From a bacterium (GTDB lineage: Bacteria > AUK180), in contig JAGLWT010000133.1 in the NCBI GenBank assembly GCA_023133295.1, forward strand, positions 5,054 to 69,053: a stretch of DNA of 64,000 nt, written 5' to 3'. The stretch's first letter is position 1; each line of letters starts with the position of its first letter. The notes beneath the pieces were generated by a model, which did no database searches, was not told the DNA's origin, and saw only the letters and a program-made list of their open reading frames with translations. This document shows positions 17,754 through 29,821 of the stretch, piece by piece. Position numbers and translations under genes: made by a program.

Positions 17754-19352
17754 TTAATTAAATATTTTTTTATTCCTAGCAAACCAGTGAATGATTTCAT
17801 ATGCTGGTTTAAATCTAATAATTTTATCTAAGTTTGGCAGGAGTGAAATTTTACACAAGTCTCTAGCGAAATTCACATCATAGATAAGAGGACATATAAA
17901 TATATCTCCTTGATCTATATCGGAAGCGTCAAAAATAAATTCGATTACTTTTCTTTCATGATATAATGCCGCAGCGCGCCAGATAAATTTCGGAAGTGGA
18001 TTAGTTAATAGATCTATCGTTATTTTATTTCTCTCGCAAAAAAGCTCTGTTTTAAATCTATTTGAAGGAGAAAGGTATATATCCCACTCAAATGCTTCAT
18101 TGAACCTTTCCTTAAATGGTCCTTCGAGAATTAATGGTCCGATTAGTTCTTCTATGCAAACAATTATCTCCTGAATAATTTCATATTGAATTCTGATTTT
18201 ATGATATAAAGGTATTTGTAATAGTAAGGGAATTGCTAGTACCTTATTGGGCTTATGACTATTATTGATCCAAGATGTTGTTAAGTTATAATATTCATTT
18301 GTATTATTAATTGCTTTACCATAGATCGATTTAATCCTAATTGTTTGATTTCCAAATTCCATTCGAGCAAATGGACCAATCTGATCATCATGTACAAATA
18401 TTTTATTTATTCTAGAAGCTCGAAGTTTGATAGTTTTGCTATATGCATCAGGTTTTTTATCACTTAAATTGTAACCAGTTATTGCAACGCCATGACTCCC
18501 AAAGACATCATTAATATTACTGTCAATATTTATTAGTTGCATCCCTAAAAATAAAGGAATGTTGCATTTGATATATGCATATAGATTACTTTTCAATATG
18601 AAAGGGTCATTTTTTACTTTAATGGAGAAAGGTTCTAAATTTACCTTCTTGATTGCGTGTGCAATTTGTTCACCATTAAGTCCTTTATTTGGAAAAGTCC
18701 GAGTTTCCATTGGAGAAAGAGAGGTTGCAGATTCGGTTATCTTAACCGGAGAAGGAATCTCATGATGAAATAATATTCCAGTACCATGGAATACTGACCA
18801 CAGTGCACTCGTTGCACACGCTGCAACAATTCGATCCTGTTCTTGAAAAGCAAGACTCTCAATAATAAGGTTAATGCCAAAAAGATTTACCTTATATTCT
18901 CTTATAATTGGATAGAATCTATTTTGTTTCTTTGGATATGTTACTAAACATGTTCTACCAAAGATTGTATCTGGTAAGGGTTTAATTACAATGAAACCCA
19001 GATAATGCTTTTGTAGCTTCTTTTGAGTAATTATTTTATCATCCCCAGAAAGAAAATTCATAAATTGGTCTTTTGTAAAAGATATTTTTTTAAAAAAGTG
19101 AATTCTTCGACACCGTCGCTCATAGAGTTTAAAACACCTAACGTAATAAGATGAATAATCTTCTAAATAGTCTTTATCAATATAAACGTTTTCAACAATC
19201 ATAGTCTTAGAATTGACTTTACTGAAATACTCTCGAAAATATCCCCAAATATATTTATTTATAAGAAGTCTCTTATTTACGGTAGTGTCTTTTGAAATTA
19301 AATTCCTTAATTTCTCAATTGAAAATTTTTCAACGTTTAAGATCGAATCCAA
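17754..19352 (-). CDS. Hypothetical protein (532 aa) with a possible papain-fold (C39-like / BtrH_N-like) peptidase domain
   Basis: Strongly AT-rich ORF. Candidate catalytic Cys in DRIVAACATSALWSVFHG and candidate His in GSHGVAITGYN ... IFVHDD, spaced as in C39/BtrH_N-like cysteine peptidases. Assignment is tentative. Confidence 0.35.
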   Translation of the reverse strand: MDSILNVEKFSIEKLRNLISKDTTVNKRLLINKYIWGYFREYFSKVNSKTMIVENVYIDKDYLEDYSSYYVRCFKLYERRCRRIHFFKKISFTKDQFMNFLSGDDKIITQKKLQKHYLGFIVIKPLPDTIFGRTCLVTYPKKQNRFYPIIREYKVNLFGINLIIESLAFQEQDRIVAACATSALWSVFHGTGILFHHEIPSPVKITESATSLSPMETRTFPNKGLNGEQIAHAIKKVNLEPFSIKVKNDPFILKSNLYAYIKCNIPLFLGMQLINIDSNINDVFGSHGVAITGYNLSDKKPDAYSKTIKLRASRINKIFVHDDQIGPFARMEFGNQTIRIKSIYGKAINNTNEYYNLTTSWINNSHKPNKVLAIPLLLQIPLYHKIRIQYEIIQEIIVCIEELIGPLILEGPFKERFNEAFEWDIYLSPSNRFKTELFCERNKITIDLLTNPLPKFIWRAAALYHERKVIEFIFDASDIDQGDIFICPLIYDVNFARDLCKISLLPNLDKIIRFKPAYEIIHWFARNKKIFN

Positions 19353-19382: not shown

Positions 19383-19559
19383 CTAAATATTTAGAACCTC
19401 TGTAAGATTCTTTTTGTTTGGACGACTCATTATCTTTATTTTATTTAGCATCTCTGTTGAATGTTTTCTTGATTGCTTTAATGCTTTCTTTCCTTCCTTT
19501 GATAATATCCATTCTCGAGCTTTTTCCCCTAAATCCTTACTTGCAATTTTTCTCACCAT
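19383..19559 (-). CDS. Small basic hypothetical protein (58 aa), absent from the ORF track
   Basis: MVRKIASKDLGEKAREWILSKEGKKALKQSRKHSTEMLNKIKIMSRPNKKNLTEVLNI. A GAGGAA Shine-Dalgarno-like sequence sits 5 nt upstream of the ATG. Lies between the C39-like gene and the IS element. Confidence 0.2.
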   Translation of the reverse strand: MVRKIASKDLGEKAREWILSKEGKKALKQSRKHSTEMLNKIKIMSRPNKKNLTEVLNI

Positions 19560-19599: not shown

Positions 19600-20792
19600 T
19601 ATTCAATTAGTCAAGCCTGTGATTGATGCCATAACATATTGGACTTTTGCGTCCGATCCATAAAGTTCTCCATATAATACTCCATCGGAGACATTTTTGC
19701 AAGGCCTGAATGTGGTTTCTCTGTATTGTACCATATGAGATATTCCATCAAGCCCACATTGAATTCCTCAACGTCCTCAAGCTCATCCAGATGAGGATAA
19801 ATATACTGACTGCTGATCGTTTTGTTATAGCTTTCGATATATGCGTTCATCTTAGGTCTTCTCGGGTAGTTGTAATAGTGTATCATTTCTGTATCGCTGA
19901 TATATTTTGCGAAGTACTTCATGAACTCACTGCCGTTATCCGTTTGTATTCTTTTGATCTCAAAGGGAAAAGCTCTTTGGAGTTTGATAAGAAAGTCTTT
20001 TGCCTGTGCGGAACTTTTGCTTCTGTATGCGAAGGCGAAAGCGATTCGTGTTTTAAGGTCAACAGCGGTAATGACATATCTTTTCAACCCGAAAACAAAG
20101 CGTTCCACCGTATCCATCTGAACAAGATCTCCGGGCTTCTCAGGCTGATATTTTCCTCTTCTGAGCTTCTTTTTCTTTTTTGATAGCCTTTTATTCACTT
20201 TCATCGTTTTTGCGTTATATGTGAGTTTTGTATGATGATCAGCAAGACGGCCTGATTCTTTCAGATCCCTGATCAACCTGGCTATCGTGGAAGTCGACAG
20301 CAGCTTTGATCCGTTTTCTCCACAATACTTGTCCAGTCCTTTTTTAACGGCATCCTGGCAAACTCCGGGGTGGGCACGGCGATATTCAAGAATGAATTGC
20401 ATGACTTCAGGCGGGCATTCTCTTTTTCTTCTGTTTTTCGGCGCACGGGAACCCGGAGCAAGGGCGATCAGCCTGCCGCTGGAATCTTCTAATTTCTTTT
20501 TCCATTGATAGAATGTGGACCTGGAAATATGGAAGGCATCCAGAGTAGCATCAAGACCATGACGGGAACGAAAGTTCAGTATCTCCAGACGGCGGTCTAT
20601 TTCTGCTTTTTCCGAATGACTTACATACTCGTGATAGTCTGATTGATACCATAACCTATTGGACTTTTGCTTCCGATCCATAGAGTTCTCCATATAATAC
20701 TCCATCAGAGACATTTTTACTCGCCCCGAAGGGAGTTTCTCCGTATTGCACCGTATGAGACATTCTGTCAAGTCGATATAGAATTTTCCCAA
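19600..20792 (-). mobile_element. IS481-family insertion sequence (DDE transposase), preceded by a duplicated copy of its own 3' end
   Basis: The ORF 19611-20792 encodes an N-terminal HTH (LDAFHISRSTFYQWKKK) and an rve DDE integrase core (RIQTDNGSEFMKYF ... YIESYNKTI ... LIWYNTEKPHSGL). A ~135-nt segment at 19612-19745 (the C-terminus) is repeated at ~85% identity at 20636-20772, in frame at the 5' end. Confidence 0.75.
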
Positions 20793-21324: not shown

Positions 21325-22905
21325 CTATGTTACCCACTTTAAATTGATATTCCAATCACCTTCATTATAATTTAAATGTTTATTTCCACTTGGATAAATG
21401 CAGATACTAGGCCAATTCGCACATATTTTGAATCTTGGGGAAGTATTAAATGGAAATTTTTGATTTCTTTCTTCAAGATCAGAATTCCGCACTTTCTCAA
21501 TCTTGATACCGCAGAAGTCCCCACTAATCAAATTTCTAAACAAGACTCCCTCTACTTCAAGCCAGTAAATATAGCCCCCTCCTCGTATATTCATACATAA
21601 TGGTAATGAAAACTTTCTAAATTCTTCTCCAATGTTTTTATCAGAAATCTTGTCTAAGACAAATCCCCAACCGTTGAATAAAGAAATATTTTTATTTAAT
21701 TGGCTAAGAATGCGTAATGACTGTAAATCCTCCTCACACGAATCCTTAAGTTCCCATAATGATGGATTCAAGCATTCAAAATGTTTAAGATCTTTTAAAT
21801 ATTTTACTAACCACCCATACGCCTGCAAATTGAATGAATCTGTGGGTAATGTGTACTTCTCAACTCCAAATTGAATTTTTGATTCTCCTATGCAGTTTTC
21901 TAAAAAAGCACACAATTTAGGATATTTCAATATTGGAGTGTCTGCTTTTTCATCTATTTGACTTCTTGTGGTATGAACATATTCACCATCATGTAACTCA
22001 CGATTTGATATTACTAATGCTAGTCCAGATTGATGGTAATATCCAAAATGTGTTTTAGTCCTTCTATACATAAAATCACATCCTACTTCTTTCTCGCCAT
22101 TATTAGAAGTTAATTTTACAATTTTTCCTGTTTCAAAACTCGGCGCAGTTATTAACACTTTTGTTGGGAGATATTCAAATGCAGTCAATAGGTCATCTTT
22201 GAGTGGTAATTTCTGTAACCTACGTGATATTAAAGCGGGCTTCCCAAAAGCAGCTTTCATTATAACTTCTTCAACTTTGGGGAGGTGAGTATTATATTGA
22301 TCTTCCCAATTAGCCAGTTGAATAATTGAATATGTTTGATCTGGATTTTGGATTATTTGTAATCTTGATTCAGGAATAGCATATTGCAAATAGTATTTTC
22401 GAATATTCATTTTTATATTATCCAAATATTCAGGTTCTTTCATTCTAGATATCTCATTTTTAATTATATTTATGTCGCTAATACAATTTTTAAAGCTTAT
22501 CCTTTTAGTTTCTCTATCGCTATTAATAAAATTTATAATTTCTTTAATAAAACCATCAGTTTGAAATCTAAAAGCTACACAGTAATCTTTTTTTGGGTGT
22601 TTATAAAGTAAAACCAATATGAAAGGAAAATCACAAGTTAAAAATAGTTTTGCATCAGCCTTATTAATTTCAGCATAAGGATTTTTTTTATTCAAAGTTG
22701 AACGAACAAAAAAGGCAACGAATTTCGGAGGAATTTTTTTTATTCCTGGTGAAATTTCTTTTCCGATTATTTGACATATAAAATCTATCCCAAAATCATT
22801 AGTTAATTTTTCTGCTAAAAGATTTAATTCACTAGATGCAAAATACCGAATATAATGTTCAGCATCAATCCCTAATTTTTGACTTGCAGTAATTTTCTTT
22901 TCCAT
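21325..22905 (-). CDS. DUF4365-like (restriction-endonuclease-fold) N-terminal domain protein with a ~400-aa C-terminal region of unknown function; candidate defence protein
   Basis: Start chosen at MEKKITASQ (22905), which has a perfect Shine-Dalgarno AAGGAGG 9 nt upstream. The N-terminal ~130 aa carry the DUF4365 pattern NDFGIDFICQII ... KFVAFFVRSTLNKKNPY ... KLFLTCDFPFILVLLYK (compare D-Y-G-I-D ... v.vQ.KS in DUF4365). AT-rich. Confidence 0.5.
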   Translation of the reverse strand: MEKKITASQKLGIDAEHYIRYFASSELNLLAEKLTNDFGIDFICQIIGKEISPGIKKIPPKFVAFFVRSTLNKKNPYAEINKADAKLFLTCDFPFILVLLYKHPKKDYCVAFRFQTDGFIKEIINFINSDRETKRISFKNCISDINIIKNEISRMKEPEYLDNIKMNIRKYYLQYAIPESRLQIIQNPDQTYSIIQLANWEDQYNTHLPKVEEVIMKAAFGKPALISRRLQKLPLKDDLLTAFEYLPTKVLITAPSFETGKIVKLTSNNGEKEVGCDFMYRRTKTHFGYYHQSGLALVISNRELHDGEYVHTTRSQIDEKADTPILKYPKLCAFLENCIGESKIQFGVEKYTLPTDSFNLQAYGWLVKYLKDLKHFECLNPSLWELKDSCEEDLQSLRILSQLNKNISLFNGWGFVLDKISDKNIGEEFRKFSLPLCMNIRGGGYIYWLEVEGVLFRNLISGDFCGIKIEKVRNSDLEERNQKFPFNTSPRFKICANWPSICIYPSGNKHLNYNEGDWNINLKWVT

Positions 22906-22974
22906 GATATTATTCCTCCTTTTAGTAGATTCGTCGCGATTGCTTTTTATACCCATAAGCACCTCCTTAAGTTA

Positions 22975-23334
22975 TTATTTGTTGTTTATGAATGATAATA
23001 AATTATCCAGCATCAGCCTTGCTTCCTCTATATCAACTGAGGTAACTTTTCTCAGGAAATTTATTGCCTTCAGGCATTCGAGGATCGCTTTCTCTTTGTC
23101 TTCCGCGGTCAGGATCTTTTCAAGACACTTGATCGCATTGGATATATGGTGACTTTCCTTTTTATCAACATCAAGGTCATTCAGCATTTCAATAATATCC
23201 GAGTTCAAGGTTTCAGGATCATATGATACCGACTCAGTGAACTCAAAAGGTTCTTCTTGTTCATAAATCTGCTCCTCAATATCTTCACTGTCGCTAACTG
23301 TAGAATCAGTCTCCTTTCTCATCGTTGCTTTCAC
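22975..23334 (-). CDS. Small acidic hypothetical protein (119 aa); its 5' end duplicates an internal segment of the upstream RHS gene
   Basis: Begins MKATMRKETDSTVSDSEDIEEQ... The first ~20 codons and the ~30 nt upstream (23300-23365) match RHS gene 25773-25830 (YNEDNRIVKATMRKET) before diverging. The remainder is highly acidic. Confidence 0.45.
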   Translation of the reverse strand: MKATMRKETDSTVSDSEDIEEQIYEQEEPFEFTESVSYDPETLNSDIIEMLNDLDVDKKESHHISNAIKCLEKILTAEDKEKAILECLKAINFLRKVTSVDIEEARLMLDNLLSFINNK

Positions 23335-23424: not shown

Positions 23425-24690
23425 CTATCTATGTTTGTCGTAAAATTCTTCTAATTTATATATGCGACACTTGTCAGTTCCGAAGAGAATAACTTGTTCG
23501 TCGGTTGTCATCACCCGCTCAACCTTATAATCAAAATCAAAAACCTTTTCCTCGCCATCTTCGAGGCGGTAAGTATAAATTTTATTCTCTAAGATCAGGA
23601 AGATCCTATCTTTGTAGATAAAGTCCGCCTCGTCGCGAAAAGATACCGGCGGTATTTCTTTCTGCCATAAAAGCCTACCATTTTTCAAATTGAAAACTTC
23701 ATAGCATTGCTTGGTGATCTTGTTATAATGTGCAGTAGCAACTCCGGTCCATTCTTCATCCGCTTTAAATCTTCTTTGAATTATCTTATTTCCAATAATA
23801 TCTGTTGTTGCAATTCCGTCCTTGTTCTTGCTCGGATATAAGTCCAGCTTCTGTTTTCTGTCGAATAGGAGCTTCCGCTTTTTCAGATCATAGACTGAAA
23901 AATGGGCAATGGGCACTCCGTCTTTCTTCTTATCAGGAGATTGAATCACATGTACCAAGTAGTGTGAAATTACATCAATAATTCCCTCTCTGTGATTAGA
24001 GTAGCCAATTTTCTTTAAATACCTTTTTAACTTAGGATTTGCAAAGTTCCGGATTTCCCAATTTTCCATATCAATCATTGTGGTTTGAAAATCATTTCGG
24101 AATTGATACAACCATATTATTTCCTCATTTTCTACACCAAGCCGCCAATAAGCAACTAATTTCTGGAAAAGTATATTAAAATCAACATCGGTAATAATTA
24201 ATTTTGAATATAGATGAGAAAAAATAATTTTATCTAAATGTTTCTGATAACCACCGTAATAGCCGTTTAAGAGTTTTGAAATATGAGAAGTATTGTCCAA
24301 TTCAAATTTCTTTGTCTCTTCATTAAAGGTATAAATTTCTAAATTCGTTTGTCTTTCTATTCTCCCTTCTTTAGGTGGTATATACAAGATCCTATTAGAG
24401 TCTGCAAAATTAAAGTTACTGGTTTTCTTCCCCTTACTTCCCTTAAAGTCCATGAGGATATTTTGAGGCATGGATAACCTTATTCTTTCAGGAAGAAGAA
24501 TCCAGTTCTTGGATCCTTCAAAGTTGATTTTTACGAAAGCGGCTTGACTCTGATTCTGTGAAGTTATGGATCCTCTTGGCTGAACCAATTTATACTCACT
24601 ATAGGTAATTTCGTCATATGAGTATATGTTACATGTAATTAAAAAGATAATAACAAACAAAGGTATTCTCTTATTCATCTCTTTCCTCAT
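23425..24690 (-). CDS. Secreted hypothetical protein (~420 aa); candidate immunity or partner protein of the RHS toxin
   Basis: Signal peptide MNKRIPLFVIIFLITCNIYS. The ORF as drawn (to 24708) overlaps the RHS stop at 24671, suggesting translational coupling. No recognisable catalytic motif. Confidence 0.5.
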   Translation of the reverse strand: MRKEMNKRIPLFVIIFLITCNIYSYDEITYSEYKLVQPRGSITSQNQSQAAFVKINFEGSKNWILLPERIRLSMPQNILMDFKGSKGKKTSNFNFADSNRILYIPPKEGRIERQTNLEIYTFNEETKKFELDNTSHISKLLNGYYGGYQKHLDKIIFSHLYSKLIITDVDFNILFQKLVAYWRLGVENEEIIWLYQFRNDFQTTMIDMENWEIRNFANPKLKRYLKKIGYSNHREGIIDVISHYLVHVIQSPDKKKDGVPIAHFSVYDLKKRKLLFDRKQKLDLYPSKNKDGIATTDIIGNKIIQRRFKADEEWTGVATAHYNKITKQCYEVFNLKNGRLLWQKEIPPVSFRDEADFIYKDRIFLILENKIYTYRLEDGEEKVFDFDYKVERVMTTDEQVILFGTDKCRIYKLEEFYDKHR

Positions 24691-27600
24691 AGAATTCATC
24701 GCTATCAATTATAACAGGATTCTGTGGATCGTCAAGTTGAATATTTACCAATCCCTCTATTTCCTTAACGTATTTTTTATAGTGGTGAGTATTTTCACTC
24801 TCATTGGCTCTTGCTTCAGCTTCTAAACCTTCCATATTATCGAGATAATACCTACCAAAAATATTTCGCATCTCTTTCGTAATCTCAGCTCGCTTTTCTT
24901 CATCTGACAAATCATCACGAGCCTGTATATCTTGAATTATCCTGAAAATCTGATTCTCATACTCTTCCAAATACTTAATAAACTGAATTACATGCGTTAA
25001 TTCATGTGAAGCTGTTGATTTCATTTCCTTTTGAAGAGTAAATATATAAAAGTCAAAAACGATTTCCCCTTCAGTATTAACTTGTGCTGTGAAATCAGTT
25101 TGCCCAAGCATCTTCGAATTGGAATCAAATATCTCCCCGATGGAACTTTCTCCGGTTAAAGCTAACTCAACTGTGTTATCGGAAAGATAAATATCTGCAT
25201 AATCCCTGTATAAAGAATATACTAGATATTCTCGCAATCCATCAAGATCAATGTATCTCAAAGGATTGTTCAATACATATATCCACCTGTTCAGACTCTG
25301 CGGGTTTTTCAAATTTAGGCTTGCCCTGTCCTTGCTCATCCACCTCCCGATCCTCTGGTCCAGATATCTCGCATTGGCATAATGGAGGTTAGTTTCCTCA
25401 TCATACTCATGTCCTGTGTACCCGTCCTTGTTCTTGTACTTCTCTTTCGCCTTGATGATATTCCCGAACGGGCCGTACTTATACGTATTCTCGATGCTTC
25501 CCATGGTGTCCGTTACCACTACAGGAGAACCTAAGACATCATAGTGGTAGTAGTGAGTGCCGTTTTTGTCCTTCTTCATGATCTTCTTGTTTCCAAAGTA
25601 ATAATTCACTTCACGATCTCCCGCCTCCAATTCGGCAAGAACTTTACCATTCATTCCCCGGAAATAGAAACCTTCCGTTTTTTCCCCATTGATGAGTTGC
25701 TTTAATTTATACACTCTAAGACCTCTGAAATCATATTGATAGTTTAGCTCAAGCGTTGCTGCCTTTTCAACTCCAGTCTCCTTTCTCATCGTTGCCTTCA
25801 CAATCCGGTTATCTTCATTATACACGAAATCAACGGAGTTTTGCAAGGTATCATTACCCAAAGTCTCCTTTCTTATTATGTTGCTGAAGTCATCATATGT
25901 ATAATTATGGCGCTTTTTAACATTGTCAACCCATGACAAGAGTCTGTTGGAAGTGTGTGCAATATTGTATGAATGTGTGTGAAAAGGACTCTGATACGAT
26001 AGGCGATTTCCGGTAGAATCATAGTTGTACTCCGTATTGAAAGGCGTTTTGTCATCATTGAACCAGGAATACATGGGACCGGTAACATTGTTGAGTCTCC
26101 CGAGTCGGTCGTATCCGTATTCCGTTTCGATATTATCTTCATCGATAAGTTTAATTCTGTTACCGTTTTTATCGTACTCATATGAATTTGTGTATATAAT
26201 ATTATTGTTACCTAAATTCATAATATCAATTTTTAATATTTCATTTAGTGGAGAATAGGCGTATTCTGTTGTCTCTGAAATTCCCGTAGGATACTTCGTT
26301 ACTGTACAACTTGAAAGCCTGCCGAAAGTATCGAAATGATTCTCAACACTAAAAAGCGGAATTCTAAGCCCCCCTAAAGATTCAGAGAAGCCGGATTTCA
26401 ATTTCCCTGAAAACTCTTCATAGGCGAAACCACTCTTTTGATCCAGGATGCCGTCATTTTCAAAATCGTACCAGAGATTGTTTAGCCGGTTTCGATTATT
26501 ATCATATCCATATGTGAATGACATCATATTTCCATTTAGGTCTATGGTCTTCTTGGTTATCCTGTCCAGACCGTCATATTCGTAGGTGTAAGTATTTCCG
26601 TTTAGATCATCAGTTTCCTTTAATACATTCCCCATTAAATCATAGTTTATTGTTTTTATATTTTGTGTTATTTGTGAAATGCTACTCTCGATTTTGCCCA
26701 GACGACCGAGTGTATCATAACTATAGTTTTTTGCTACCTGGGCAGAATTTTGATATCCTAATACATTGCCCGCAAGATTATTTTCATATTCTTCCCAACT
26801 CCCATCAGATTCAATTTTATTCACTAGCTGCGATAGGTAGTTATATTGAAATTGTGACTGATTACCCCGGCTATCAGTTACCAGAGTAAGGTTTCCAAGT
26901 GCATCGTAGTCATACGAAGTTTCATAAATCGCAGCATCATTGTACTCTTTGACCATAATCAGTCCATCTTCAACATCATAGAGATATTCCATATTCGGAT
27001 CTCCTGATTTATCAGCTTTGGGGCTCCAAATTTTCTCACTTCTGAAAACTCCATTTTCATTGTTAAAGTAGAGATGCTCTGATTTTGAAATCCGAATATC
27101 ACCGTCCTTTGATAATCTGGTTTCAATAACCCTGTCAATTTGATCATATTTGAATTCAGTTGAAATTCCTGAAGGCGAGATCTTGCGGATCAAATTATCA
27201 AAATCGTTGTATTCGTATCTTGTCTCAAAGAATTCCGAGGGATCTAAGGCTGTATTACCATTCTTATCGAAGAATTGCCACTCCTTCTCAATCCTAAAAA
27301 AGCTGTCAAAGTGGTATTTCGCGTTTGCCACTACTGCTCCGTCAAGGTATTCCGTGGAGGCTGTAATTGTTCTAAGTGTATCGTCATAACCATATAAGCT
27401 CTGTGGAAGATCTTGCTTGCCTACCTTGGTTAATCTTCCATAAATATCATATTCGTATGCAGTATTTCTTCCCATGGGATCAATATAGGTTTCTAAAAAC
27501 AATTCATCATTGTAATCGGCAAAAGCCATTAGAGTATAGGCGCCATCGATTTCTCCATCCACATATTTGTTCGAGTCTACTTTTACTCCGGTCAGAAGGG

Positions 27601-29821
27601 AGTTCCCGAAAGAGTATCCACTCAGAGTATCCCATGAGAAATCAACCCGCGGCCAATAGTGATAATCATATGCCGCCGAAGAATTGGCTTCTGTATAACC
27701 GTAATTAAGGAATACCCTACGCCTTTCACTCCCATTTATGTATTGATCTATCATCAAAGGTTTACCGTACCAATCCACAGCGACTACTTCTGACAGCAAT
27801 GTCCATGAGTTGTCCTCTGTATTGAATAAGTGCTCCCTTACCGGAACTCCGGATGGATCAAATTCTTTTTTAAAATGGCTGACCAGGGAAGCACTCTGGT
27901 AAAGTTTTTTCTCTGATCGTGCAATTATATTCGTAAAAAAGCTATAAGGCAGATCTTCTACAACCCTGATGTCTTGGTAGTAATTATATTCACGTATCTT
28001 CCCAAGTGGGAGATACTCTTTACTTAAGTATCCAAGAGTATTATATTCGTACGAAAATTCCACAGGAACATCATCCATAGTCTTTGTGATCTTGACGGGC
28101 CTGTAAATTTCATCTCTATTTGAATATACGCCAGATTCGTTAAGGAAAGGAGATATAATGTTAAGTTTCTCGTATTCATAGTCAGTCTTATATCCATTTG
28201 GTAGTCGATCTCGTATCTTTAATACAAGATTATTCCATTTCCAATCAGACGGGACAAGGTAAATGTATTCCCCTCCATTTTCTTGGACATCCAAGTAATT
28301 CAGATATATCCAATGATCAATATTGCTGTGTATCAAATACCGGGATTGATAAATACGCTGATCTACAATGGCTCCATCCACTATATCATTAACAATCTTC
28401 TCAACCATGTGTAATCTCCAGTCAGGTTCATTCGAATCCTGCTGTTGATATATGTATGATATGGTTGGAGGGAAATTGTCAGCTGAAACATTATTTTCAC
28501 CGATCCTTTTAATTGATTTTAGAGATCTAAACTTAAAGTCATTGACTCTCGTTATCCAACCAGAATATTGCATGGGGTTCCAGTTGGAATTATACTCTTC
28601 AAATTCAAACCGCAATTTCTCCCCACTTGTGGAGATATAGTCCCAGTCATTTGGATCTAATCTAAATCCACAAATTTGTTCACCATACTTATAAATGAAT
28701 TCGGGATTTGAAAGAAAAGATTTTGTATATGAATTTAAAATACTAAAGCTCACAGAGCCCGTATTCGCCCCGGATAAATAATTACTCTCATAGGCAGAAT
28801 AATCCATCAATGAAGATTCAAATGACTCGCCGACAAAGAATGAAATTATGTCTGCAATGGAATCATAACTGATTAATCTATATGTCTTCCCCGATACTTC
28901 AAGAGTACTGCCACTTACATTTACCGAGTATAACGGCAAATAACTATCCCCTGCACCAGCCTCCTTTGAGTATACAGTGAATGATTCATCTCCGGGTTCA
29001 TCTTCCGAATACTTCATCATCTTTCCATTCGAAAAGTAGAATTCAGGTTTTGTCTCATTATCGGGATCATGAGGAGATGATTTACTTAAGATATTGTATG
29101 GAGACTCCTGATTAGATGTAAGGCTTAGATACTTCAGATCGTTGTCTGGAGAGTCAATGGTTTGATTATAATAATCTCTTACTATTCTTTTACAAATGGC
29201 CCAACTGCCGACATCATTTACATAACCGGATACTTCGTGGATATCAACATCCTCCTTTATATACTCACACCTTCGTGTATAATATTCATGATGAGAATGA
29301 GGATTTGCGAAATTTGCTTCATATACTCCATTTTTTTCTAATTTGAAAATCTTGACGGCTACTCCATCAATACTGAGAATCCAAGCGTGTTCATATGAGC
29401 ATTGATAATCAATTGATCCACGATACGTCATCTTGGGTGGAGCCTCGAAAGAATCGCTTTCCAGCGGCCAGTTGTTATTAATATTCTTGACTAGCTTCAA
29501 TTTAACATCCGCTGTACTTCCATCCTTCAAAGGAAATGTCTTTAGGGTACGAGAAAGAATAACATTCCCTGAAAAATCATCCACAGAGCATGAAAAATCA
29601 ACGGTGCTGTAAGTGCTTTTATCAAATGATACGGTATTGAAATAAGATGCAATATCAAAGATCCCACTATCCTCTTCATCTCCGGCGGACATTGTACGCA
29701 TTATTGTATTTGAAGCTTCATCTTTATTCAGTTCAGAAGAAAGTCTAGAATTCGTTTCAGAGAATGTCCTCATCGAAAAAAGAATACATGCTATTAAAAA
29801 GAAGAATTTGACTGATTTCAT
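24671..29821 (-). CDS. RHS/YD-repeat polymorphic toxin (1716 aa) with Sec signal peptide and a C-terminal HExxH metallopeptidase-like toxin domain
   Basis: Signal peptide MKSVKFFFLIACILFSMRTFS. Many YD repeats (YEYDIYGRLTKV, YDYDALGNLTLV, YTYEYDGLDRITK, YGYDRLGRLNNV, YDVLGSPVVV). RHS core end GHEYDEETNLHYANARYLDQRIGRWMSKD ... NRWIYVLNNPLRYIDLDGL (the DPxGL-type boundary). A 187-aa tip follows, containing HELTHV. Confidence 0.85.
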   Translation of the reverse strand: MKSVKFFFLIACILFSMRTFSETNSRLSSELNKDEASNTIMRTMSAGDEEDSGIFDIASYFNTVSFDKSTYSTVDFSCSVDDFSGNVILSRTLKTFPLKDGSTADVKLKLVKNINNNWPLESDSFEAPPKMTYRGSIDYQCSYEHAWILSIDGVAVKIFKLEKNGVYEANFANPHSHHEYYTRRCEYIKEDVDIHEVSGYVNDVGSWAICKRIVRDYYNQTIDSPDNDLKYLSLTSNQESPYNILSKSSPHDPDNETKPEFYFSNGKMMKYSEDEPGDESFTVYSKEAGAGDSYLPLYSVNVSGSTLEVSGKTYRLISYDSIADIISFFVGESFESSLMDYSAYESNYLSGANTGSVSFSILNSYTKSFLSNPEFIYKYGEQICGFRLDPNDWDYISTSGEKLRFEFEEYNSNWNPMQYSGWITRVNDFKFRSLKSIKRIGENNVSADNFPPTISYIYQQQDSNEPDWRLHMVEKIVNDIVDGAIVDQRIYQSRYLIHSNIDHWIYLNYLDVQENGGEYIYLVPSDWKWNNLVLKIRDRLPNGYKTDYEYEKLNIISPFLNESGVYSNRDEIYRPVKITKTMDDVPVEFSYEYNTLGYLSKEYLPLGKIREYNYYQDIRVVEDLPYSFFTNIIARSEKKLYQSASLVSHFKKEFDPSGVPVREHLFNTEDNSWTLLSEVVAVDWYGKPLMIDQYINGSERRRVFLNYGYTEANSSAAYDYHYWPRVDFSWDTLSGYSFGNSLLTGVKVDSNKYVDGEIDGAYTLMAFADYNDELFLETYIDPMGRNTAYEYDIYGRLTKVGKQDLPQSLYGYDDTLRTITASTEYLDGAVVANAKYHFDSFFRIEKEWQFFDKNGNTALDPSEFFETRYEYNDFDNLIRKISPSGISTEFKYDQIDRVIETRLSKDGDIRISKSEHLYFNNENGVFRSEKIWSPKADKSGDPNMEYLYDVEDGLIMVKEYNDAAIYETSYDYDALGNLTLVTDSRGNQSQFQYNYLSQLVNKIESDGSWEEYENNLAGNVLGYQNSAQVAKNYSYDTLGRLGKIESSISQITQNIKTINYDLMGNVLKETDDLNGNTYTYEYDGLDRITKKTIDLNGNMMSFTYGYDNNRNRLNNLWYDFENDGILDQKSGFAYEEFSGKLKSGFSESLGGLRIPLFSVENHFDTFGRLSSCTVTKYPTGISETTEYAYSPLNEILKIDIMNLGNNNIIYTNSYEYDKNGNRIKLIDEDNIETEYGYDRLGRLNNVTGPMYSWFNDDKTPFNTEYNYDSTGNRLSYQSPFHTHSYNIAHTSNRLLSWVDNVKKRHNYTYDDFSNIIRKETLGNDTLQNSVDFVYNEDNRIVKATMRKETGVEKAATLELNYQYDFRGLRVYKLKQLINGEKTEGFYFRGMNGKVLAELEAGDREVNYYFGNKKIMKKDKNGTHYYHYDVLGSPVVVTDTMGSIENTYKYGPFGNIIKAKEKYKNKDGYTGHEYDEETNLHYANARYLDQRIGRWMSKDRASLNLKNPQSLNRWIYVLNNPLRYIDLDGLREYLVYSLYRDYADIYLSDNTVELALTGESSIGEIFDSNSKMLGQTDFTAQVNTEGEIVFDFYIFTLQKEMKSTASHELTHVIQFIKYLEEYENQIFRIIQDIQARDDLSDEEKRAEITKEMRNIFGRYYLDNMEGLEAEARANESENTHHYKKYVKEIEGLVNIQLDDPQNPVIIDSDEFYEERDE
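24674..25234 (-). other. Variable C-terminal toxin tip of the RHS protein (HExxH zinc-metallopeptidase-like), downstream of the DPxGL-type core boundary
   Basis: Residues after ...YIDLDGL: REYLVYSLYRDYADIYL ... STASHELTHVIQFIKYLEEYENQ ... The HExxH motif is followed by a Glu-rich helix. Confidence 0.55.

Follow-up and report, generated by a model that had tools for sequence, protein, structure and literature searches.

A DREN-headed protein with an orphan C-terminal domain, a candidate single-gene defence protein of an AUK180 bacterium

What might be the role of a gene whose product starts like a nuclease and then continues into a large region devoid of recognisable motifs? We addressed this question for a gene located in a stretch of 64,000 nucleotides (nt) of contig JAGLWT010000133.1 (assembly GCA_023133295.1, positions 5,054 to 69,053), which belongs to a bacterium of the AUK180 lineage and which is called hereafter the window. 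A first reading of the sequence alone, the original prediction, had proposed a novel defence gene with a DUF4365-like head. Our analysis makes the product of this gene, a protein of 526 amino acids (aa), a credible candidate, one of many uncharacterised families of defence islands, set apart by its unusual active site and its orphan domain. That it is a horizontally acquired, stand-alone, single-gene defence protein directed against mobile elements is a reading to which we give an even chance, and its defence part is inferred from genomic association.

The N-terminal domain is homologous to DREN, both in sequence and in fold. Although the window protein itself matched the Pfam family DUF4365 (PF14280) with E=0.018 and 15.6 bits only, over residues 16-111 and below the gathering cut-off of 24.3, the homology is supported transitively, because 59 of 92 family members matched DUF4365 at E<=0.1, the best at 3.1e-8. 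No other Pfam family recurred. The family profile retrieved one PDB sequence, 9qbq_A, described as 'DUF4365 domain-containing protein' (E=0.004, positions 2-108). An AlphaFold2 model of the full-length protein, for which an alignment of 97 sequences served as input, has a mean predicted local distance difference test score (pLDDT) of 95.1 and a predicted template modelling score (pTM) of 0.87. When this model was compared with the PDB using Foldseek, the only significant matches were twelve DREN-APAZ chains of SPARDA systems (E 1.9e-7 to 2.2e-4, probability 1.0), with TMq values of 0.19-0.23, which is about what is expected when only ~130 of the 526 residues superpose. In the model, the core is made of helices (H) and strands (E) in the order H7-26, E29-33, E42-46, E62-70, H82-90 and E95-103, and it is followed by an extension comprising E133-137, H145-154, H158-176, E181-186 and E191-196. 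The DUF4365 pattern that had been claimed for the N-terminus is therefore sub-threshold in the protein's own profile score, but it is borne out by the relatives, by 9qbq_A and by the SPARDA fold matches, and the search with PF14280 does not refute the proposal.

The active site of this module departs from the canonical one. DUF4365 proteins have a DxGxD...QxK signature (PMC11297309), the residues of which have been documented in several systems. Thus, D41, Q60 and K62 are catalytic in NbaSPARDA, where Mg is bound by D41 and Q60 (PMC12205087), E37 and D41 are catalytic in SPARDA DREN, with E37 from XauSPARDA (bioRxiv 10.1101/2025.04.08.647717; PMC12205087), and Q62 and K64 are catalytic in TmuRE, the Q62A/K64A mutant of which is inactive (PMC10810196). 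Most single substitutions of D42, D46, Q66 or K68 abolish the toxicity of EAT16 (PMC11297309). The DxGxD part is present in the window protein as D37-F-G39-I-D41. D37, G39 and D41 are invariant in the 97-member alignment, E16 is found in 94 of the 97 sequences, and the residues of the solved 9qbq_A at the positions of E16, D37, G39 and D41 are E16, E37, a Gly and D41. The strict conservation of both aspartates argues for a functional metal site. The QxK part is not found, as the window protein has F66-V67-R68 instead. Across the family, position 66 is a Gln in 29% of the members and otherwise Ser, Asn, Cys, Phe or Ala, with no apparent constraint, and position 68 is Arg in 78% and Lys in 22%. 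Since the canonical catalytic QxK motif is replaced by F-V-R, nuclease activity should not be taken for granted. The xVRST variant is also found in the N-modules of proteins with other architectures, and this recurrence indicates a distinct clade of DREN domains rather than decay in one lineage. The variant site (D37, D41 and R68, without the Gln) may cleave DNA. A conserved site that has exchanged Lys for Arg and lacks the Gln represents a test case for the tolerance of PD-(D/E)xK active sites.

As for the C-terminal domain, our models depict it as a confidently folded orphan without detectable relatives. Modelled alone, residues 198-526 yielded a pLDDT of 92.5 and a pTM of 0.89. The predicted layout consists of helices at 209-243, a beta-rich block at 249-317, a helical region at 329-410, three long antiparallel strands at 425-480 and an extended tail. 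Pfam returned no match in the C-terminal region of any of 92 members, NCBIfam and PADLOC yielded no match either for this region, and a profile of the region found nothing among PDB sequences. With the model of the domain, Foldseek reported no match at E<=0.001 in the PDB or in BFVD, a database of viral structures; the best PDB match was LolB, at E=0.06 and with a probability of 0.08. LolB/RseB-type folds, with probabilities of 0.08-0.10, were not used as evidence. We also considered an APAZ-like C-terminus, suggested by an alignment of the full-length model to SPARDA DREN-APAZ over ~400 columns. This candidate was discarded: the domain is not APAZ, because every SPARDA match was lost when it was modelled alone and the TM-scores of the full-length model equal those of the ~130-residue core alone. 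The claim that the C-terminal region lacks recognisable motifs thus stands; the orphan domain measures ~320 aa. The structure prediction that had been proposed for this region gave a confident model of an apparently new fold, and there was no housekeeping match in Pfam, NCBIfam, PADLOC, the PDB or BFVD that would refute the proposal.

How the C-terminal domain has evolved sets it apart from the nuclease core. Its mean pairwise identity is ~20%, compared with 34% in the core, where conservation within the protein is highest, indicating that the C-terminal domain evolves faster. Among the best 150 matches, it was found in this architecture only. The confinement to one architecture and the lower identity make it look like a sensor. 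Its net charge is near neutral, and it has a single patch of strong conservation, made up of H291-x2-G294-x5-S300 and, further on, H311.

The gene itself is intact. An uninterrupted open frame extends from 22962 down to 21325 on the minus strand, and the ATG at 22905 opens a protein starting with MEKKITASQ. A second AAGGAGG sequence is found at 22968-22962, 5 nt ahead of an in-frame ATG at 22956, which was chosen by one public gene call to yield a protein of 543 aa. We prefer the ATG at 22905, since the MEKK-equivalent residue is the first position in all homologues and K3 is kept in 92 of the 97 members. The coordinates of the open reading frame (ORF) and the start that had originally been assigned were thus correct, as were the AAGGAGG 9 nt upstream, found at 22921-22915, and the three quoted motifs, which are present in the translation as DFGIDFICQII (residues 37-47), KFVAFFVRST (61-70) and FLTCDFPFILVLLYK (88-102). 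At ~30% GC, ~8% of random codons would be stops, which by our own arithmetic gives a chance of ~1e-19 for an open frame of 526 codons; the ORF is therefore not fortuitous. Moreover, three full-length homologues and ~270 more distant ones show that it is a real gene. The AT-rich codon usage noted initially was confirmed, with a GC content of 0.303, compared with 0.405 for the window, and a GC content at third codon positions (GC3) of 0.216, compared with ~0.5 for the housekeeping neighbours. By this composition the gene appears foreign, and its acquisition by horizontal transfer is part of the reading that we judge to have an even chance. No promoter or terminator signal exceeded the shuffled expectation in a scan of the target region.

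The protein belongs to a genuine family that is rare and has no name. Among 5.8 billion proteins, a word-indexed search identified only three relatives, of 525-533 aa and with 37-45% identity. When 1.84 billion cluster representatives were searched exhaustively with a profile, 273 proteins were obtained at E<=1e-3, 109 of them at E<=1e-30. These 273 represent clusters at 50% identity, and nearly all are 515-545 aa long and aligned end to end. Rerunning the homologue search with a profile built from 97 members yielded the same 4 proteins without any addition, and a scan of genome contigs revealed 2 loci. Where the sources name the family at all, it is as 'hypothetical protein'. Its distribution is patchy, with members in a Streptosporangium genome, a Syntrophobacteraceae metagenome-assembled genome, a Paenibacillus plasmid and many metagenomes. 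In the alignment, G12, D37, G39, D41 and G294 are invariant, and K3, G15, E16, F19, V67, D84, S300, H311, F334, G466 and P490 are conserved in more than 90% of the sequences. Every invariant residue is found in the window protein, as are most of those that are nearly invariant, and the protein therefore looks functional. Even if it turned out to be inactive or to serve a purpose other than defence, this rare and patchy orphan family has been overlooked by Pfam, NCBIfam and PADLOC v2. The sole plasmid-borne relative, identified by tblastn among 72,556 plasmids, is found on p-YT9A of Paenibacillus polymyxa (NZ_CP133769.1; locus L014, 12001-13530) and has 25% identity to the window protein. It is annotated as two adjoining hypothetical coding sequences of 54 and 453 aa, next to a XerS recombinase gene, and this apparently split copy may be disrupted.

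The N-terminal module is not confined to this family. Profile positions 2-~207 also head tetratricopeptide repeat (TPR) proteins of 1423-1470 aa and 775 aa that have a PIN-like region of the TPR-GreAB-C-PIN conflict system, as well as a 393-aa protein that ends with a topoisomerase-type zinc ribbon. The TPR(-PIN) giants share the whole N-module of ~205 aa with the window protein, including xVRST and the helical and hairpin extension, but they continue with TPR and PIN-like regions rather than the orphan domain of ~320 aa, and they have a partner gene for a protein of ~683 aa. Being portable across architectures, the N-module behaves like the effector of a conflict system. In two metagenomic loci (L026, 7986-14409; L027, 2752-9181), a TPR giant of ~1465 aa is followed by the ~683-aa partner, which has no Pfam match, suggesting a conserved two-gene conflict system. 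The giant of L027 adjoins a Type I HsdR-Schlafen fusion.

The neighbourhoods of the relatives are variable and rich in defence genes, as is typical of single-gene defence systems. In a raw count, at least 8 of the ~12 informative loci have restriction-modification (R-M), McrBC, TIR/ThsB-like, LmuB-like, PDC-S06, PDC-S39, HNH/restriction endonuclease (REase), NERD, DUF4062 or Gabija-like genes no more than a few genes away from the family member (Table 1). The family has no conserved partner gene: BLAST searches with the 119-, 427-, 58-, 532- and 294-aa ORFs of the window against all ORFs of the related loci detected nothing. The defence-island context that had been invoked for the gene is therefore found around its relatives, which are largely in defence or mobile-element settings and in this respect do not refute the proposal, but no classical defence gene adjoins the target in the window. 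A methyltransferase gene of the Eco57I/MmeI type (Type IIG/PglX-like) is present 1-3 genes upstream of the family member in L009 (2506-6594), L010 (2-3313) and L023 (144-2531). The three loci are independent and the genes in between differ among them, and both a linkage and co-residence in defence islands are conceivable.

The best-supported reading also suggests how such a protein might operate. On its own, DREN is an inactive monomer that requires assembly into tetramers (PMC12205087; bioRxiv 10.1101/2025.04.08.647717). In the window protein, the N-terminal ~205 residues, a DREN/DUF4365-type PD-(D/E)xK module, would be the effector, and the C-terminal ~320 residues would fill the role played by APAZ and Argonaute in SPARDA. 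The C-terminal domain, as a putative sensor or regulator, would hold the nuclease inactive at rest. Upon sensing a cue from the invader, it would undergo a conformational or oligomeric change leading to assembly of the active nuclease; activation through oligomerisation is proposed here by analogy with SPARDA. The assembled nuclease would then degrade DNA, resulting in direct restriction or abortive infection, and it may protect the host against phages or plasmids. In its most specific form, which we hold tentatively and somewhat short of an even chance, the proposal is that of a previously undescribed one-gene immune system in which a portable Arg-variant DREN domain (DxGxD...xVR) is joined to a direct sensor of infection, a domain with an apparently new fold that replaces the guide RNA, Argonaute and APAZ of SPARDA. 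The same module would arm at least two further conflict architectures that are uncharacterised, those of the TPR-PIN giants and of the zinc-ribbon protein.

Several observations weigh against a defence role and must be set beside other explanations. In the window, an RHS toxin locus lies on one side of the target and an insertion sequence (IS), followed by a two-gene module that is uncharacterised, on the other, none of these neighbours being a classical defence gene. Some contexts of the relatives are uninformative, such as the response regulator/kinase and DUF5677 genes of L003 or the hypothetical genes on the Paenibacillus plasmid. No relative was detected in phage genomes by tblastn or in a scan of viral contigs, and no PADLOC model (v2.0.0) was matched by the window protein or by four other full-length members; an extended member, P0113, gave a weak match only, to the Ago-associated REase over the nuclease core. 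Finally, the Arg-type site may be inactive or do something else. The last point also bears on an unlikely alternative, in which the protein is a Type IV (modification-dependent) or Mrr-like stand-alone restriction endonuclease whose C-terminal domain reads DNA or a modified base directly, with no separate step of sensing and activation. As is typical of Type IV enzymes, the gene stands alone and in most loci has no cognate methyltransferase; DUF4365 has been placed in the Mrr subfamily of RecB-like nucleases (bioRxiv 10.1101/366930); relatives are found inside or beside R-M and McrBC loci; and the pTM of 0.87 suggests a rigid two-domain body like those of nuclease-plus-reader enzymes. However, no DNA-binding or base-flipping fold (SRA, winged helix and the like) was detected in the C-terminal domain by Pfam, the PDB profile search or Foldseek, its near-neutral net charge does not favour DNA reading, and the variant active site casts equal doubt on the activity of such an enzyme. 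If that site is dead, the DREN-like module might be a scaffold for DNA binding or oligomerisation, with an activity residing in the C-terminal domain, for instance at H291/S300/H311, or the whole protein might be a non-enzymatic regulator. The loss of the Mg-ligand Gln and the change of Lys to Arg in most members would fit this idea. Outside the N-terminal domain, no polar residues other than H291, S300 and H311 are strongly conserved, and these three could form a catalytic or ligand-binding site. We consider it rather improbable: the invariance of D37, G39 and D41 and the near-invariance of E16 are hard to explain without a metal or an active site, Lys and Gln are kept in 22% and 29% of the members, respectively, conservation within the protein peaks in the N-terminal core, and the C-terminal domain shows no recognised catalytic fold.

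Two other explanations relate the gene to its surroundings. A resolvase-like nuclease for maintenance or recombination, carried by ISs, integrative and conjugative elements or plasmids for their own benefit, would account for the IS, the integrases, the large FtsK/SpoIIIE protein and XerS near several members, and PD-(D/E)xK resolvases such as RecU appear among the weak fold matches, at rank 32. Nevertheless, these RecU-type matches are far weaker than those to DREN, no single type of element recurs while defence genes are commoner neighbours, and the lack of copies in phage genomes and viral contigs, together with the single, apparently split one among the plasmids, makes this explanation very unlikely. 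The proximity of the RHS polymorphic-toxin locus might alternatively indicate that the gene is cargo of that locus, either an orphan toxin cassette or an immunity-type gene, with the acidic 119-aa ORF immediately upstream as its partner. The target is two genes downstream of the 1716-aa RHS protein on the same strand, and DUF4365 domains can be delivered as toxins, as exemplified by EAT16 of an extracellular contractile injection system (eCIS) (PMC11297309). This idea appears barely credible, given that neither an RHS gene among the annotated or scanned neighbours nor any counterpart of the acidic ORF or the 427-aa ORF was found in the ~12 loci of the relatives, that the nuclease helix is the very start of the protein, no trafficking segment or RHS-core remnant preceding it, and that the GC3 of 0.216 of the target differs from those of the acidic ORF (0.425) and the RHS gene (0.37).

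Coming back to a stand-alone defence protein, SPARDA provides the closest comparison. Its DREN domain is an Mg/Mn-dependent, non-specific nuclease whose monomers are inactive; activation takes place once Argonaute filaments gather four copies (PMC12205087; bioRxiv 10.1101/2025.04.08.647717; PMC10810196). The window protein shares with SPARDA DREN-APAZ the N-terminal effector fold, a larger, non-catalytic C-terminal region after it and a defence-related setting. It differs by being ~100 aa longer, by its C-terminal region, which is not APAZ, and by the replacement of QxK by x-V-R/K in the family (F-V-R in the window protein). An adjacent gene for a SPARDA-type short prokaryotic Argonaute (MID-PIWI), which together with APAZ defines SPARDA, was found neither in the window nor in the ~12 related loci. 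With DUF4365 proteins at large, which include the eCIS toxin EAT16 and the integron-cassette defence protein 'Divona' and in which the domain serves as a DNA-damaging module of conflict systems (PMC11297309; bioRxiv 10.1101/2024.07.02.601686), it has in common the DxGxD motif and the fold, by which it belongs to this superfamily, but it scores below the gathering threshold and is without the Q and K of the signature. Unlike in the EAT16/'Divona' group, the C-terminal partner is neither Holliday-junction-resolvase-like nor Mrr plus crr6. The organisation as a nuclease head plus a specific tail and the residence in defence islands are also found in Mrr-type Type IV enzymes and in the Cap4/Mrr-headed LmuA proteins of Lamassu. 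However, no LmuA model was matched, and an LmuB-like (SMC) neighbour, obligatory for LmuA, is present in only one of the ~12 loci, L010. The tail also distinguishes the protein from single-polypeptide nuclease defence proteins, as Foldseek found no solved structure to which it is related.

A full-text search of the literature indicated that DREN/DUF4365 domains are treated mainly in Argonaute systems, in addition to an eCIS toxin and an integron cassette with other partner domains. Their mechanism has so far been understood only for the Argonaute-controlled effector of SPARDA. If our proposal is correct, the use of DREN without Argonaute or APAZ would show how other sensors recruit and control this nuclease, and a compact one-gene candidate would be added to the defence repertoire.

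Table 1. Features of the target gene, of the window (positions of the whole stretch) and of related loci
Feature	Position	Strand	Description	Basis
Target gene	21325..22905	minus	Complete gene, 526-aa protein (NCBI MCK4643913.1, 'hypothetical protein KAU32_09825')	ORF translation; start and end backed by end-to-end alignment with three homologues; identical NCBI record
N-terminal core	22516..22905	minus	Residues 1-130, DREN/DUF4365-type PD-(D/E)xK core; E16, D37-x-G39-x-D41, Q45, then F66-V67-R68 instead of QxK	Pfam, PDB profile, Foldseek, AlphaFold2 model
N-terminal extension	22291..22515	minus	Residues 131-205, helices and beta-hairpin moving with the core as one N-module	Other architectures match only positions 2-~207; AlphaFold2 model
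C-terminal domain	21325..22290	minus	Residues 206-526 and stop, family-specific; patch H291, G294, S300, H311; also F334, P435, N439, G466, P490	AlphaFold2, null library searches, conservation
Shine-Dalgarno sequence	22915..22921	minus	AAGGAGG, 9 nt 5' of the ATG at 22905	Direct reading of sequence
532-aa ORF	17754-19352	minus	Preceded by the 58-aa ORF; looks like a conserved two-gene module	
58-aa ORF	19383-19559	minus	Ahead of the 532-aa ORF	
Transposase ORF	19611-20792	minus	DDE (rve)/HTH transposase, listed as 393 aa	Pfam
Acidic 119-aa ORF	22975-23334	minus	29 D+E vs 14 K+R; GC3 0.425; no family match	
427-aa ORF	23425-24708	minus	Overlaps the RHS gene; no family match	Lipoprotein-like signal sequence
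RHS gene	24671-29821	minus	Intact, 1716 aa	
N-module-TPR(-PIN) giants P0124, P0134, L026, L027			~1420-1470 aa	Pfam PF20698 'PIN domain associated with the TPR-GreAB-C-PIN system'
L001, neighbours			PDC-S06/AAA_13, RE_Bsp6I	
L003, neighbours			Response-regulator kinase, DUF5677	
L006, neighbours			HNH/REase-like	
L009 (Streptosporangium), neighbours			Eco57I-type methyltransferase, McrB, McrC	
L010, neighbours			Eco57I-type methyltransferase, LmuB-like SMC ATPase	
L013, neighbours			Vsr, DUF6339, ThsB-like TIR, IS110, caspase-like peptidase	
L015, neighbour			IS66	
L016, neighbours			FtsK/SpoIIIE, SfsA, PDC-S39	
L017, neighbours			Split HsdM, HsdR, two Schlafen-ATPases, UvrD and OLD-TOPRIM (Gabija-like)	
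L022, neighbours			Integrase, NERD protein	
L023, neighbours			Eco57I-type methyltransferase, DUF4062	

As for the other genes around the target, the original prediction had described an IS on one side and orphan RHS material on the other. The IS is indeed present, but the RHS gene is intact rather than orphan. The tail of the RHS protein has an HExxH motif (HELTHVIQ) after the DLDGL junction, a sequence that suggests a toxin of the metallopeptidase type, and the overlapping 427-aa ORF probably codes for its immunity protein. The acidic ORF may belong to this RHS/immunity region as well. It had initially been grouped with the target, and we considered it as a partner or immunity protein of the latter; this was rejected, as it has no counterpart near any of the relatives and its composition differs. 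No tRNA genes were detected in the window.

On the other side, the frame of the transposase ORF continues uninterrupted from a degenerate copy of the ORF's 3' end. The duplicated segment is 146 nt long and 84% identical, the repeats being at 19620-19765 and 20640-20785, the latter of which is the degenerate duplicate. The intact IS is therefore adjoined by what is left of a second copy, and the true transposase is probably shorter than the ORF as listed.

Beyond the IS, which alone separates it from the target, the module formed by the 532-aa and 58-aa ORFs looks foreign like the target itself (GC 0.303, GC3 0.227). Its large protein has no match in Pfam, NCBIfam or PADLOC, and the two genes may constitute another defence or toxin-antitoxin module that is so far uncharacterised. 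We examined the 532-aa ORF as a displaced short prokaryotic Argonaute or a paralogue of the target and rejected both, with an hhalign probability of 0.2%; it represents a large family distinct from that of the target, with a small partner gene of its own upstream. At least 1903 homologues with ~45% identity are found in several phyla, all of them called 'hypothetical', and in two other contigs they are also preceded by a weakly similar ORF of 57-64 aa. One of these two homologues has a Prok-E2/JAB/ThiF cluster on one side and a Type I R-M system on the other. The 532-aa protein has papain-like Cys and His motifs (AACATSALW ... SHGVAITGY).

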